NCBI GenBank assembly: GCA_003208875.1
Contig: QCUR01000002.1
Coordinates: 244,401 to 308,400, forward strand
Source: Prochlorococcus sp. AG-679-M23
Lineage (GTDB): Bacteria; Cyanobacteriota; Cyanobacteriia; PCC-6307; Cyanobiaceae
Direction: 5' to 3'
Length of the DNA: 64,000 nt
Position 1 is the stretch's first letter; every line of letters starts with the position of its first letter. Positions 717-62,812 of the stretch are shown piece by piece. Under the pieces are notes generated by a model, which was not told where the DNA came from, ran no database searches, and saw only the letters and a program-made list of their open reading frames with translations. The translations under genes were made by a program, and so were the position numbers.

Positions 717-1010
717 GTGGCCAATAACAAATCAGCGAAAAAAAGAATTCAAGTTGCTGAAAGAAATCGTTTAGTGAATAAATCATATAAATCAACAGTA
801 AGAACGCTAACAAAAAAAACATTAGCTAACTGTGAGAAATATAAGCAAGAACCTAATTCTAATAACAAAGATATAGTTCTTGTTAGTGTAAATGAAGCCT
901 TCAGTCTTATCGATAAGGCAGTCAAAAAGAATGTTCTACATAAGAATAACGGTGCTAACAAAAAATCAAAAATCAATAAAATAGTTAAAGATTTTCTTAC
1001 AAGTAAGTAA
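717..1010 (+). CDS. rpsT: 30S ribosomal protein S20
   Basis: MANNKSAKKRI...IDKAVKKNVLHKNNGANKKS. Confidence 0.97.
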   Translation: MANNKSAKKRIQVAERNRLVNKSYKSTVRTLTKKTLANCEKYKQEPNSNNKDIVLVSVNEAFSLIDKAVKKNVLHKNNGANKKSKINKIVKDFLTSK

Positions 1011-1016
1011 GTAAAA

Positions 1017-1811
1017 ATGACCAATATTGAATTAATTGATTCTCATTGTCATTTGATATTTGAAAATTTTGAAGAGGATCTTGAAGAAGTTGTTTCAAGG
1101 TGGCGTTCAATAGGAGTAAAAAAATTGCTCCATGCATGTTGTGAATTATCAGAAATTCCTAAATTGAAAAATATATCTCGAAGATTTGATGAATTGTATT
1201 ACTCAGTTGGTTTACATCCACTTGAAGCTAACAAATGGGAATGTAATTCAAAAACTATAATGAAAAATGCAGCCCAAGGTGATTCAAGAGTTGTTGCTAT
1301 TGGTGAATTAGGGTTAGATTTTTTTAAAAGTGAAAATACAAATAAACAAATAGATGCTCTTGTTCCACAAATGCATTTAGCCTGCGAACTTGACTTGCCC
1401 GTCATTATCCATTGTAGAGAAGCTGCAAATGAGATGATAAAAATATGTCAGGATTTAACCCAACAAGGTATATGTCCTAAAGGAGTTCTGCATTGTTGGA
1501 GTGGCACTCCAGATGAGATGAAGCAATTTTTAGATCTAGGATTTTATATAAGTTTTAGTGGGATAGTTACATTCCCAAAAGCATACGAAATTCATGAATG
1601 CGCAAGAATTGTTCCAGGTGATAGATATTTAATAGAAACAGACGCTCCCTTTTTAGCCCCTGTCCCATATCGAGGGAAAAGAAATGAACCAGCTTTTGTA
1701 GAAAGCGTAGCTAAGTCTATAGCCAGTTTAAGATCTTCAGACTTGAAAAATATTGCAGATGAGTCTTCTAGGAATGCTGAAGATTTGTTTAAGTTTGACT
1801 TGATAAATTAA
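1017..1811 (+). CDS. tatD: TatD family hydrolase/DNase
   Basis: DSHCH, GLHP, AIGELGLD, IHCR and ETDAPFLAP motifs. Confidence 0.93.
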   Translation: MTNIELIDSHCHLIFENFEEDLEEVVSRWRSIGVKKLLHACCELSEIPKLKNISRRFDELYYSVGLHPLEANKWECNSKTIMKNAAQGDSRVVAIGELGLDFFKSENTNKQIDALVPQMHLACELDLPVIIHCREAANEMIKICQDLTQQGICPKGVLHCWSGTPDEMKQFLDLGFYISFSGIVTFPKAYEIHECARIVPGDRYLIETDAPFLAPVPYRGKRNEPAFVESVAKSIASLRSSDLKNIADESSRNAEDLFKFDLIN

Positions 1812-2049
1812 CACATAACCTGTTAATATTAAAAATTACTGGAATTTTTTCTTAATTATTAGTAAACAGCTGATTAAAGTATGGTTTTATCGCCTTTATC
1901 TTTGATCATTTCAGCTAATAATAATCTAGATATTTGTTGAATTCAAGACTAAAATCTCGATTTCACTTTAAAAGTCTTGATTATTTTTCTAAAAGTTAAG
2001 TCGATTTTATGGTAATTAGCAATTCTTACATAATGGCGGGTTTTCTTGG

Positions 2050-7286
<5,237 letters not shown>

Positions 7287-58921: not shown

Positions 58922-59077
58922 TTATTTAATTTCTTTAGAACTTAATAGAGGTCTTATTTTGTTTTTTAATTCCTCAAGAGGTTTTTCAATAAAATCAGGT
59001 TTTTTTAAAACTGCAAGTACAACCCATCCTGCGCTAATAGCTAGAACCATTCCTAAATAAGCGAAACCATAAATCAT
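58922..59077 (-). CDS. Cassette ORF A copy 1, 51-aa single-TM protein
   Basis: MIYGFAYLGMVLAISAGWVVLAVLKKPDFIEKPLEELKNKIRPLLSSKEIK; differences from copy 2 are at third codon positions. Confidence 0.75.
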   Translation of the reverse strand: MIYGFAYLGMVLAISAGWVVLAVLKKPDFIEKPLEELKNKIRPLLSSKEIK

Positions 59078-59088
59078 TGATACTTTAA

Positions 59089-59277
59089 TTAAGTTGATTC
59101 CAATTTTACTTCTTTTTTGACTTCCTTTTCCTGTTTAAGTTCCATCTTATTTTTAACATCTTCTTTTTCTTTATCCTCAATTATCAAATTTTTTTCTTTT
59201 CTTCCGAAATCATCTTTACCTGAAATAAAGAATATAAGTGACACTATAAAAAATAGTGCAAAAAGCAAAACTTCCAT
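59089..59277 (-). CDS. Cassette ORF B copy 1, 62 aa, N-terminal TM plus K/E-rich tail
   Basis: ORF track; paralogue at 62348-62536. Confidence 0.7.
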   Translation of the reverse strand: MEVLLFALFFIVSLIFFISGKDDFGRKEKNLIIEDKEKEDVKNKMELKQEKEVKKEVKLEST

Positions 59278-59371
59278 TAGTCAACAAATTTAACTGTCAA
59301 TATTAAATTAATTTAGAGATCTAGTTTTAATCAATATCAAATAATACAACTTGCTGTTAATTCAACTTAAA

Positions 59372-59488
59372 TCAACTATTAATTGGTCTCTTCTTATTTT
59401 TTGTTTGATACTGTAATGCAGCTTTTAAATGTTTAACTTCTTTTTCTAAGTTTTCAATTCTTTTTTCTAAATCGTCGTTACTAGTCAT
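59372..59488 (-). CDS. Cassette ORF C copy 1, 38-aa coiled-coil peptide
   Basis: MTSNDDLEKRIENLEKEVKHLKAALQYQTKNKKRPINS; heptad L/I pattern; same length in copy 2. Confidence 0.7.
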   Translation of the reverse strand: MTSNDDLEKRIENLEKEVKHLKAALQYQTKNKKRPINS

Positions 59489-59639
59489 TTAAATGTTTTG
59501 ATAAAGTACAAGTAAATAATTATATTAAAGTAATCTGCGACATAATTGATTCATTAGTGTGTTATTAAGTCCAAATGATACAAGACTCTCTCGTTTTTGT
59601 TTACAATAAGTAATATCTAGTTATTAGCTTAATACAAAA

Positions 59640-59756: not shown

Positions 59757-59899
59757 TGGAAAATAAAAATCAGAAAAGAAACATCGATCCTCAAAAAACA
59801 AGTGCAGAGAAATTAAATGGCAGATTCGCTCTTGTTGGTGTTATCGCTTTAGTTGGTGCTTACATAACAACAGGACAAATTGTACCTGGGATCATTTAA
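59756..59899 (+). CDS. hli: High light inducible protein (multicopy/phage-related type), 47 aa
   Basis: ...AEKLNGRFALVGVIALVGAYITTGQIVPGII; TAATG overlap with the previous gene. Confidence 0.92.
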   Translation: MENKNQKRNIDPQKTSAEKLNGRFALVGVIALVGAYITTGQIVPGII

Positions 59900-59926
59900 G
59901 AATTCATTCAACCAAGATCGTCATGA

Positions 59927-59960
59927 GAGTCAGCTAGTAGGGATACGGGCTGGCTTTATT
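59927..59960 (+). terminator. Hairpin terminator after the hli pair
   Basis: GAGTCAGCT/GGCTGGCTT stem, inner GTA-GGGA-TAC with a GNRA loop, then TATT. Confidence 0.6.
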
Positions 59961-60138
59961 AATGAAGAAATTTGTTTAATTTTAGTAATGAATTATATAA
60001 TAAAAAGTTCGAATGAGGTTCGAATGGAACTAGCGTTCTCTGAACCCTTTTATTAGTTAATTCTCTTTCAATATATCGAATAGTTTTTCGAGAAGAAATA
60101 TATAGTTACAGATCACTAGGGATAAAGTTTTTTATTAT

Positions 60139-60357
60139 TTAACAACAAGAGCAACCGCTCTCAGATTCAGATTCTGGATGAATAGAAGTTAGTGCATCTG
60201 CGATATCTCTCAGCATATCTGCAACATATTCAGGAGGGCACCCAAATTTATTAACATAAGCAACACTTTGTTTCGCAATATCTGTATAGGCAGGCAAGAT
60301 CATATTATCTAGCTGCTCTTTAGTTGGTTGCCACTTTAATTCTAAATTATCTGACAT
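60139..60357 (-). CDS. Hypothetical 72-aa acidic protein with a C-terminal CSCC
   Basis: ORF track; ends in ESESESGCSCC. Confidence 0.7.
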   Translation of the reverse strand: MSDNLELKWQPTKEQLDNMILPAYTDIAKQSVAYVNKFGCPPEYVADMLRDIADALTSIHPESESESGCSCC

Positions 60358-60472
60358 CTTTGAAAGTAATATTTAATTTAGTTTAATTACTAAAAAACAA
60401 TTAACAACAAGTCTGTATAATTTTTACTTTCTAAAGTTTCTGAATTCTAATTAAGGATTGCATATTTATTTT

Positions 60473-60493
60473 TTAATATGATTATCATTTTCA
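60473..60493. promoter_or_regulatory. Zur/Fur-family box-like palindrome
   Basis: TTAATATGATTATCATTTTCA: ATGAT-N-ATCAT core, one mismatch to TNANAATGATNATCATTNTNA. Confidence 0.6.
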
Positions 60494-60532
60494 TTTTTTG
60501 TCATTAAGTAATACTCTAAAGTGAGTAAGTGA

Positions 60533-60561
60533 TTGACTTTTAGCCTTGTATTCTTTATAGT
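60533..60561 (+). promoter_or_regulatory. Sigma70-type promoter of the Cys-rich peptide gene
   Basis: TTGACT (60533-60538), 17-nt spacer, TATAGT (60556-60561); ATG follows at 60585. Confidence 0.7.
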
Positions 60562-60584
60562 TAGATTCGAATATCTAATTAATT

Positions 60585-60725
60585 ATGATTACTACCTTAT
60601 TAAAAAATATTCTTATTACTAAGATATCTATTTCTAATAAAGAGGAAGTATGTTCTGGCTGTGGATGCACTTGTCCTTGTGAGTGTAAAGATTGCGCAGA
60701 GTGCTCAACTTGTGGCGATCATTAA
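60585..60725 (+). CDS. Metallothionein-like Cys-rich peptide, 46 aa
   Basis: Manual translation MITTLLKNILITKISISNKEEVCSGCGCTCPCECKDCAECSTCGDH: 9 Cys plus a terminal His in the last 24 aa; own promoter. Confidence 0.75.
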   Translation: MITTLLKNILITKISISNKEEVCSGCGCTCPCECKDCAECSTCGDH

Positions 60726-60749
60726 AATTTATAAATCGATATATAAATA

Positions 60750-61121
60750 TCAAACAGTATTGTTTTTCTTAGCTAAATATTTCTCTGATCTCCTTAATGC
60801 TCTTATAGCGCCTTTAAAATCTCCATTATTATATTTCTCATCACTTTTTTGTTCTAATAACTTAACAATCTCATTTATTTTAGATTCATCAATTCTCAAT
60901 TTATGATCATTTATCAAGTCAAATTTAGATGCATATAAAAAGGATAATTCTTCTTTAAATTGTTTGAAAATATCTTTATCACAGAATTTCGACTTTAATA
61001 GGCATCTTAATTCCCTTTTATCTTCTATTGCCCCTTTAAAATCTCCCTCCTTAAATTTTCTTTCGCTAGACCTTGTCTGATTAACAATTTTCTCAATACA
61101 CAATTTATCTGAATTTAGCAT
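60750..61121 (-). CDS. Hypothetical protein with two TPR-like half repeats
   Basis: KFKEGDFKGAI and KYNNGDFKGAI internal repeat. Confidence 0.7.
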   Translation of the reverse strand: MLNSDKLCIEKIVNQTRSSERKFKEGDFKGAIEDKRELRCLLKSKFCDKDIFKQFKEELSFLYASKFDLINDHKLRIDESKINEIVKLLEQKSDEKYNNGDFKGAIRALRRSEKYLAKKNNTV

Positions 61122-61174: not shown

Positions 61175-61924
61175 TTAATTCTTAATTGCGTATTGCCATG
61201 AATTATATTTTGAAAAATTTGTTTCTCTAAGTAACTGCAATTTTCTGCTATTTATTTTGATAACAATTCCATCAGTTGGGTATTTAGAAAATATTTTTCC
61301 ATCTAACCATCTTTTTCTAAATAACTCGACTTGGCTTGTAAAATTTGTGAAGTAACTGTGAGGGGTCTTAAATCCACATTTTTTAAGATAGTTAAGGGTT
61401 TCATACTGGTTAAGTCTTCCATTAAGTATTTGGAAACAGCAAAAGCTGAAACTTTCTTCAATCCTTTTTTTATTGTTGAGGAATTCGCTTGTAATTTTTT
61501 GGGAAAAATAGGAAGTTTCGTTTGGGGCATAAAGCTCACCTCTAACTTGAAAATCTCGTTGGATAGGAATGCTATTGGGGACATCTTTAATCTTTTCAAT
61601 TTTGCTTGAGACATCAAATCCTTTTCTTGTAATAGCTTTATTAAACTTGCCTTTTTTATAACTAATTGCAATAGCACAACCATCGATTTTTGGTTGAATA
61701 CTCAATCTTGTATTTTTTAATAAGCTAGCTAAAAACTCTTTATAATTATCCTTAGCCAATGAAGGTAATAATAAATTGCTTCTTTGCTTAAAATAATTAC
61801 ATTGTGGATTTGTACGAAGTAAGTTTCTCTCAAGTTGATCAAATGCTTTATCAGATATAAGTGCATTTCCTATTCGATATTCTTCATCAAGATATTTAAC
61901 ATTTTTTTCTAATAGTGAACCCAT
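61175..61924 (-). CDS. NAD-dependent DNA ligase fragment: domain Ia and adenylation domain only
   Basis: YRIGNALISDKAFD, QPKIDG (motif I), VRGE, PTDGIVIK, ends at WQYAIK; no OB/Zn/HhH/BRCT domains. Confidence 0.88.
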   Translation of the reverse strand: MGSLLEKNVKYLDEEYRIGNALISDKAFDQLERNLLRTNPQCNYFKQRSNLLLPSLAKDNYKEFLASLLKNTRLSIQPKIDGCAIAISYKKGKFNKAITRKGFDVSSKIEKIKDVPNSIPIQRDFQVRGELYAPNETSYFSQKITSEFLNNKKRIEESFSFCCFQILNGRLNQYETLNYLKKCGFKTPHSYFTNFTSQVELFRKRWLDGKIFSKYPTDGIVIKINSRKLQLLRETNFSKYNSWQYAIKN

Positions 61925-62183: not shown

Positions 62184-62336
62184 TTAATCTTCTTTAGAAC
62201 TTAATAGAGGTCTTATTTTATTCTTTAATTCCTCAAGAGGTTTTTCAATAAACTCAGGTTTTTTTAAAACTGCAAGTACCACCCATCCTGCGCTAATAGC
62301 TAGAACCATTCCTAAATAAGCAAAACCATAAATCAT
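62184..62336 (-). CDS. Cassette ORF A copy 2, 50 aa
   Basis: MIYGFAYLGMVLAISAGWVVLAVLKKPEFIEKPLEELKNKIRPLLSSKED. Confidence 0.75.
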   Translation of the reverse strand: MIYGFAYLGMVLAISAGWVVLAVLKKPEFIEKPLEELKNKIRPLLSSKED

Positions 62337-62347
62337 TGATACTTTAA

Positions 62348-62536
62348 TTAAGTTGATTTCAATTCTACTTCTTTTTTGACCTCCTCTTTCTATTTAAGTT
62401 CCATCTCATTTTTAACAGCTTCTTTTTCTTTATCCTTAAGTATTAATTTTTTTTCTTCTCTCCCGAAATCATCTTTACCTGCAATAAAGAATATAAGTGA
62501 CACTATAAAAAATAGTGTAAAAAGCAAAACTTCCAT
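62348..62536 (-). pseudogene. Cassette ORF B copy 2 with a premature stop (48 aa instead of 62)
   Basis: CAG of copy 1 is TAG at 62392-62390; the frame continues to the ancestral TAA at 62350-62348. Confidence 0.7.
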
Positions 62537-62628
62537 TAGCTAAGAAATTTAATTATCAATCTCAAATTAATTTAGAGATCTGATTTTAATCAACATCAAA
62601 TAATACACCTTGCTGTTCATTTAACTAA

Positions 62629-62745
62629 TCAACCAGTAGTAGATTTCTTTTGATTTTTTGTTTGATACTGTAACGCTGCTTTTAAATGTTGCACTTCTTT
62701 TTCTAAGCTTTCAATTCTTTTTTCTAAATCTTTGTTGCTAGCCAT
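62629..62745 (-). CDS. Cassette ORF C copy 2, 38-aa coiled-coil peptide
   Basis: MASNKDLEKRIESLEKEVQHLKAALQYQTKNQKKSTTG. Confidence 0.7.
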   Translation of the reverse strand: MASNKDLEKRIESLEKEVQHLKAALQYQTKNQKKSTTG

Positions 62746-62812
62746 TTAAAAGTTTGGATAAAGATTAATCAGTAAGCAATCCTAAGGATAAATGATACTT
62801 AAAAAAAGTTTT

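Follow-up and report, generated by a model that had tools for sequence, protein, structure and literature searches.

The window (the whole stretch of Prochlorococcus DNA that was analysed, 64,000 nt) contains a short reading frame that starts with an ATG at 60585 and ends with a TAA at 60723–60725. Its deduced product has 46 amino acids, MITTLLKNILITKISISNKEEVCSGCGCTCPCECKDCAECSTCGDH. The features recognised at this locus are the following, with the evidence or position that defines each of them:

60096..60736, unstranded: limits of a two-gene cassette, set by homology with other genomes; flanks unrelated
60139..60357, minus strand: divergent gene for a 72-aa partner protein with a CSCC tail, back to back with the peptide gene
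60478..60494, unstranded: Zur-type 7-1-7 box, ATGATTATCATTTTCAT, 91 nt upstream of the ATG
60533..60561, plus strand: promoter-like site TTGACT-17-TATAGT, with 10 of 12 consensus positions
60585..60725, plus strand: Cys-rich peptide gene, 46 codons plus stop (list of open reading frames, homologues)
60585..60650, plus strand: variable Cys-free N-terminal half, residues 1–22 (dN/dS, open frame)
60651..60722, plus strand: Cys-rich domain, residues 23–46, with nine Cys; predicted metal-thiolate part (invariance, dN/dS)

The window locus was compared by blastn with 21 loci of one context class (class A). Homology extended from 60096/60131 to 60726/60740 and the flanks were unrelated. Since homology is confined to approximately 60096–60736 and the flanking DNA differs, the segment represents a two-gene cassette of 0.64 kb. 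Loose ends of RNA-library contigs were also found at 60736/60737.

The partner protein is 70–72 aa long in the class A loci, where its gene is adjacent to and divergent from the peptide gene in 21/21 cases; the CSCC tail is kept in 20 of them, the remaining one (L017) being truncated. Residues W9, LPAY, CPP and DMLRDIAD are invariant or nearly so. The AF2 model (pLDDT 81.6) consists of a two-helix hairpin, with pLDDT above 90 for residues 13–59, and a disordered tail ending in CSCC. No name for this protein was obtained from Pfam, NCBIfam or the source annotation, Foldseek, run with the model on the PDB, found nothing at E≤0.001 (best E 3), and tblastn against phages was negative. The partner family is broader than that of the peptide (149/285 genomes of the genus), and the peptide is absent from 15 loci that retain the CSCC-tail gene. 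Therefore, the pairing of the two genes is not obligate. A paralogue of the partner without the CSCC tail was observed in the same genome (L046, G000:C3:12188-15367, positions 1453..2107), directly upstream of a gene for a 135-aa protein that appears OsmC/Ohr-like by reading of its translated sequence.

Several other elements were observed around the cassette. Small genes of the hli type, named by reading of their ORFs, adjoin it. Together with the size (1.65 Mb) and G+C content (~31%) of the genome, they are in keeping with a high-light Prochlorococcus. A direct repeat of ~0.6 kb (58931..59506 and 62190..62763, 86–93% identical, spaced 3.26 kb apart and with small membrane-protein ORFs) encloses the cassette together with the hli-type genes and two further genes, one encoding 123 aa and the other ligase-like. 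The 123-aa ORF (60750..61121, minus strand) contains two GDFKGAI-containing repeat copies and matched no Pfam or NCBIfam family. The ligase-like gene (61175..61924, minus strand) encodes a 249-aa protein in which just the adenylation domain of NAD-dependent DNA ligase was matched (PF01653, 1.2e-18; PHROG 3869, 2.6e-28), LigA being much longer. In locus L030 the peptide gene has a comparable gene, of 251 aa, as its neighbour. A weak match to the small RNA Yfr20 (RF02367; 31.3 bits against a 44-bit gathering score, E 0.039) was located at 59890..59951 on the plus strand (806..867 of the extracted window locus, L001).

Coding evidence and domain structure of the peptide

The first-pass annotation, made from the letters of the window, had proposed that a 46-aa ORF was missing from the list of genes. 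Homologues and a coding signature confirmed it at 60585..60725 on the plus strand, as a gene that gene callers mostly miss. The pattern claimed for its product, C-x2-C-x-C-x-C-x-C-x-C-x2-C-x2-C-x2-C-x2-H without F, Y or W, was found exactly as described. Cysteine represents 9/46 residues overall and 9/24 within the Cys domain, in CxC and CxxC motifs, and the only His is at the C-terminus. Aromatic residues do occur in relatives, as F or Y in the N-terminal half of some of them and, rarely, as a single residue within the Cys domain.

Cysteine conservation and dN/dS had been suggested as checks on this gene, and both were informative. In 25 aligned genomic copies all nine Cys (C23, C26, C28, C30, C32, C34, C37, C40 and C43) were invariant, and so were M1, G27, P31, D36 and E39. 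Codons at invariant residues nevertheless showed synonymous changes (TGT/TGC, GGN, GAR). The pooled Nei-Gojobori dN/dS of 29 copies was 0.35 for the whole gene and 0.15 for the Cys half (residues 23–46). The nine Cys of the proposed layout stood, and the His did not, this last position being occupied by H, N, D or E. For the N-terminal half (residues 1–22) dN/dS was 0.76, and 1.2 in the subfamily of the window, where dS is low. The ATG was nevertheless invariant in 30/30 copies, and among 53 unique nucleotide versions of the 22-codon N-terminal part no stop was present in frame 0, against 102 and 156 stops in the other two frames. Four RNA libraries, one from each of four studies, also yielded contigs over the ORF; these are assembled contigs only, with DNA carry-over possible, and bins without cover in single runs were not counted as evidence. 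An in-frame TAA interrupts two genomic copies. These results show that the 46-codon ORF is a genuine protein-coding gene under purifying selection. In one genome (G022:C1:1694745-1697423) two identical peptide genes were observed 2.5 kb apart, each adjoining a partner gene with an in-frame TAA.

The N-terminal half had also been considered as a possible leader or targeting peptide. Its near-neutral evolution, the lack of an amphipathic signal and its reduction to 7–9 residues in some phage copies speak against this. In the helical-moment test the median moment was 0.15, against 0.21 in shuffled sequences, and none of 48 sequences reached p<0.05, and the idea of an amphipathic helix was rejected. 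The AF2 model of the whole peptide, built on a 30-row alignment, was uninformative (mean pLDDT 53.3, pTM 0.18), and residues 3–17 form its sole helix.

Distribution of the family in hosts, databases and phages

When 285 genomes of the genus were searched in all six frames, 60 contained matches at E≤1. By our own count from the resulting table, 48 of these genomes matched at E≤1.1e-10, three contained fragments at contig edges and nine gave weak matches that are probably due to chance. Relatives of the peptide are thus present in 48/285 genomes, or 51 when the contig-edge fragments are counted. When the search was extended to a family-wide sample (401 genomes, 64 genera), matches were obtained in only two genera; in the second genus the peptide gene was detected in 9/18 near-complete genomes.

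Only 8 protein clusters were found among 5.8 billion proteins, none of them named and none from NCBI; the family is systematically missed by gene callers. With a profile built from 30 copies, 39 proteins were retrieved at E≤1e-3 from 1.84 billion representatives, all with the same motif and none of them a known metallothionein. A profile search of the PDB returned only L40e zinc ribbons (E 0.19–0.47), which were dismissed as chance matches, and neither the peptide nor the partner protein was matched in PADLOC or PHROGs. Full-text searching of a limited literature collection provided no published description of the peptide. In four metagenome-derived members (P0141, P0150, P0155 and P0159) several Cys codons were changed to Tyr codons (TGT to TAT), which may reflect decay of the gene or errors of sequencing.

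The peptide is also carried by phages. Ten related loci were found in IMG/VR, eight of them with the motif; at one of these the neighbouring genes belong to cyanomyovirus PHROG families, including Hsp20, and the flanks match S-SSM4, P-TIM40 and other phages. When the peptide itself was used as query, tblastn against GenBank phages gave no match, a result attributed to the low-complexity filter of BLAST, and blastn then identified a copy in a cultured cyanomyovirus, Synechococcus phage S-SSM7 (SSSM7_228, ADO98293.1, 29 aa, annotated as 'hypothetical protein', T4-like gene cluster 1368). The Cys-rich core of SSSM7_228 is closely similar to that of the window peptide, and its central CGCVCPCEC is identical to that of other phage copies. 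It differs from the window peptide in its length, in having 11 Cys with only 7 residues before the first one, in the absence of a Zur box and in its position between genes of the phage structural region. Phage copies in general occupy unrelated contexts. Some of them have just 7–9 residues ahead of the first Cys, the Cys domain being the sole part kept; therefore, the Cys domain is the functional unit. The phage version, used as query in tblastn against GenBank phages, gave matches only through its Cys-free N-terminus. This module, M(I)NDFLDNLGAxQYxKMH, was also observed at the start of unrelated small ORFs in other cyanomyoviruses (S-WAM2, S-SKS1 and ACG-2014h; loci L061, L062 and L063, each from position 1201), and it looks like a common N-terminal or start-region module.

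The Zur-type box, the promoter and the hupE link

Upstream of the peptide gene, the alignment of 55 unique regions revealed three conserved blocks, corresponding to a 17-nt box, a -35 and a -10. The two promoter hexamers are conserved over all context classes and in both genera, in agreement with the earlier claim that the gene has its own near-consensus promoter; in the window this is the TTGACT-17-TATAGT site at 60533..60561. One RNA-library contig begins to match at 60564, which is only a weak hint. The 17-nt box was present with ≤3 mismatches in 54/59 loci, mostly 83–100 nt before the ATG, and it accompanies the peptide gene across four genomic contexts and the two genera.

A matrix was built from 34 unique boxes and both strands of the 1.65-Mb source genome (~31% G+C) were scanned with it. 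Thirty matches were obtained at ≥13 bits, and only two loci reached ≥23 bits: the box of the window itself (23.8 bits), as expected by construction, and position 19473 of contig C3 (23.9 bits). The latter is flanked by the divergent genes for the ABC ATPase (znuC) and ZnuA, and the surrounding cluster includes ABC-3, Fur-family and CobW/COG0523 genes. None of three simulated first-order Markov genomes reached 23 bits (highest score 22.4), and the six next-best loci examined (16.7–19.2 bits) fell inside long open reading frames or at their ends. The peptide gene thus has, as a member of a Zur regulon would, an upstream 7-1-7 box matching that of the znu uptake cluster. PMC3323870 places the Prochlorococcus Zur box between znuA and znuC. 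We infer that Zur binds the 7-1-7 box, and the predicted Zur regulon of the source genome would consist essentially of the znu cluster and the peptide cassette.

Eighteen loci have a gene of the partner family and no peptide (the CSCC tail is present in 15, and three are loci of tail-less paralogues). None of them has a box at ≥15 bits, and therefore the box belongs to the peptide gene. A role of the CSCC partner as an obligate or Zur-co-controlled companion was rejected on the basis of the 15 CSCC loci without the peptide and of these 0/18 loci with a box.

The box sits 38–51 nt upstream of the conserved -35, whereas the box at znuA overlaps the -10, and its distance to the -35 shifts by 13 nt in one context class. 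Such a placement would be unusual both for a classical repressor and for an activator that depends on strict phasing.

The 59 genomic loci were assigned to 21 of class A, 13 with hupE downstream, 15 in a cynS neighbourhood (five of which, those with clustered neighbours, show cynS-tatA, named from their sequences) and 10 others. In the second of these classes a gene of the HupE_UreJ family (PF04955; E 1e-17 and 6e-15) lies directly downstream of the peptide gene on the same strand (13/59 loci), and in 10 loci of the genus it starts 14 nt past the peptide stop codon. Ten of the 93 genomes of the genus with ≥90% completeness have hupE, and the peptide gene is directly upstream in 10/10; no hupE was found in the source genome. 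In the second genus the peptide gene precedes 4/11 hupE genes. Two of three such loci were scanned, and both contained a cobalamin riboswitch between the peptide gene and hupE:

2780..2926 of loci L067 and L071, plus strand: cobalamin riboswitch (RF00174), ~60 bits (gathering threshold 31.5 bits)

HupE under a B12 riboswitch is a cobalt importer, as shown by mutant rescue in Synechocystis (PMC4284471 and PMC7689651). On the evidence of hupE and the B12 riboswitch, cobalt is as good a candidate as zinc. Taken together, the Zur-type box shared with znuC-znuA and the coupling to hupE provide strong, although indirect, support for a role in metal handling.

Function of the peptide

The peptide has the traits of the metallothionein class, namely low molecular weight, a conserved high content of Cys in CxC and CxxC motifs, and few or no aromatic residues. 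Like the BmtA/SmtA proteins (PF02069), it is small, rich in Cys, predicted to buffer zinc and found in marine picocyanobacteria, with a Zur-type box ahead of its gene. In BmtA/SmtA conserved His ligands stand beside the Cys, and this trait is lacking in the peptide, whose only His is terminal and variable. The nine-Cys beta-domain of vertebrate metallothionein and the short fungal Cu-metallothioneins have ~25–30 residues with mostly CxC/CxxC motifs, and no regular secondary structure is expected in such proteins when metal-free. The peptide resembles them in its richness in CxC/CxxC, and its low-confidence AF2 model is in line with metal-free disorder; it differs from them in its invariant G, P, D and E residues, and it occurs in another kind of host under different regulation.

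The first-pass annotation had placed the peptide outside the SmtA/BmtA family as a new type of metallothionein. It is indeed a real gene outside SmtA/BmtA, although the His did not hold as a conserved ligand. No Pfam or NCBIfam family matched the peptide at E≤10, PF02069 (Metallothio_Pro, the SmtA/BmtA family) and the other metallothionein families included. It has about half the size of BmtA/SmtA, another Cys layout and a 24-residue nine-Cys domain without any conserved His or aromatic residue, and it is further distinguished by the variable 22-residue N-terminal extension, the coupling to hupE, the mobile island cassette and the cyanophage copies. BmtA/SmtA proteins, of which SYNW0359 of Synechococcus WH8102, with its Zur boxes, is an example, are described in PMC3323870 and PMC9337993 as cytosolic, preceded by a Fur-family (Zur-type) box and often overlooked by annotation because of their small size. 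The earlier remark that SmtA/BmtA is largely missing from Prochlorococcus was supported: no PF02069 match was found anywhere in the source genome at E≤1, and the reviews PMC3323870 and PMC8374608 state that all Prochlorococcus lack a metallothionein gene and known handling of excess zinc.

The explanation that we favour, with a probability of roughly 0.55, is that the 46-aa product is a metallothionein-like thiolate-cluster buffer for divalent metals with expression set by Zur. The peptide would bind metal through its nine invariant Cys, which would wrap divalent ions, most likely zinc and possibly cobalt or cadmium. The likely load would be three M(II), since the beta-domain of vertebrate metallothionein holds that number with nine Cys. 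Zinc-loaded Zur would turn the gene on when zinc is plentiful, and in the hupE-coupled copies the peptide would hold zinc or pass on cobalt while HupE imports cobalt. We lean, by a small margin, towards activation by Zur in zinc plenty because the box is located upstream of the conserved -35/-10 and not over the promoter as at znuA, and because the sole tested precedent, bmtA of Synechococcus WH8102, is activated by Zur (PMC9337993).

The same box could alternatively belong to a zinc-starvation gene. In that case the box would overlap, at its left edge, the -10 of a promoter that Zn-Zur keeps repressed. Made when zinc is scarce, the peptide would bind metal as a high-affinity scavenger, or as a chaperone that receives cobalt or zinc from HupE or ZnuABC and delivers it. 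A -10-like TAATAT does lie at the left edge of the window's box (60474..60479), the same layout of TAAAAT plus box occurs on the znuC side ~97 nt from the start codon, and the 14-nt gap between the peptide gene and hupE in 10 loci resembles an uptake operon. Moreover, Zur regulons consist mostly of repressed uptake and chaperone genes, as described for Anabaena Zur (PMC3323870). However, the -10-like hexamer retains just 4 of 6 positions in many loci and has no conserved -35 before it, the conserved -35/-10 blocks being the downstream ones, and bmtA of WH8102, the one tested marine picocyanobacterial precedent, is Zur-activated. We therefore regard control by starvation as rather unlikely. A further possibility is that the Cys do not store metal, and that the peptide acts as a thiol/disulfide redox buffer, as a carrier of Fe-S or another cofactor, or as an inhibitor of a host or phage protein. 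The location in a stress-gene island with hli genes beside it and another Cys-tailed protein adjoining, the carriage of copies by phages and the OsmC-like gene (a label from reading of the translation) next to the partner paralogue would suit such a function, which would leave unexplained both the Zur-type box travelling with the gene and the 10/10 coupling to hupE; it appears quite improbable.

Two other proposals concern what is made from the reading frame. The peptide could be a RiPP precursor of the type seen in SCIFF/ranthipeptides or other Cys-rich radical-SAM RiPPs; a maturase would then act on the Cys-rich core, and the Cys-free part would be the leader. SCIFF and FibroRumin precursors do share with it a length of ~45 aa and a Cys-rich C-terminal half preceded by one without Cys. 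In the ESM Atlas, whose two best clusters (0.89 and 0.80) are unnamed, the FibroRumin and SCIFF clusters were the named look-alikes, at a low score of 0.76 that makes them a lead only. Nevertheless, no SCIFF or other precursor family matched in Pfam or NCBIfam, and the source genome, which is 99.99% complete, has no SPASM (PF13186), MNIO (PF05114), YcaO (PF02624) or LanC-like (PF05147) domain and hence no such maturase. No recurrent enzyme gene was present beside the peptide in 30 loci with clustered neighbours; motif scans of all 59 loci covered three named neighbours and have no bearing on the maturase question. Conservation is also reversed relative to a leader and its core, since the putative leader is near-neutral while the core is invariant, and the leader is missing from phage copies. 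All this makes a RiPP precursor very improbable. The ORF could otherwise be a regulatory upstream reading frame, the translation of which tunes hupE and the product of which is functionless by itself. It does end 14 nt before hupE in 10 loci and precedes the hupE riboswitch in 3 more. Nonetheless, 46/59 loci have no downstream hupE, including that of the window, whose genome has none at all; the non-Cys residues G27, P31, D36 and E39 are invariant, the dN/dS of the Cys half is 0.15, and the phage copies lie in unrelated contexts. Such a role is scarcely credible.

The metallothionein-like buffer may form part of a wider scheme, which is put forward here as speculative and on the whole doubtful. 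The peptide would represent a previously unrecognised metallothionein family of Prochlorococcus and of picocyanobacterial phages, and it would constitute, together with the cobalt importer HupE, a two-part Zur-switched module. As zinc rises, the peptide would lock zinc away and HupE would secure cobalt for B12 against competition by zinc. Strains would exchange the module in the form of an island cassette, while the Cys domain in phages would serve to alter the metal pools of the host during infection.

Competition between zinc and cobalt is thought to limit Prochlorococcus, a globally dominant phototroph. A strain-variable peptide with a link to Zur, and to the only hupE genes that the genus has, would open the buffering of zinc and cobalt in this organism to concrete molecular tests. 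The peptide gene would also mark metal niches in metagenomes, and it would be an unnoticed metal-related auxiliary gene of cyanophages.
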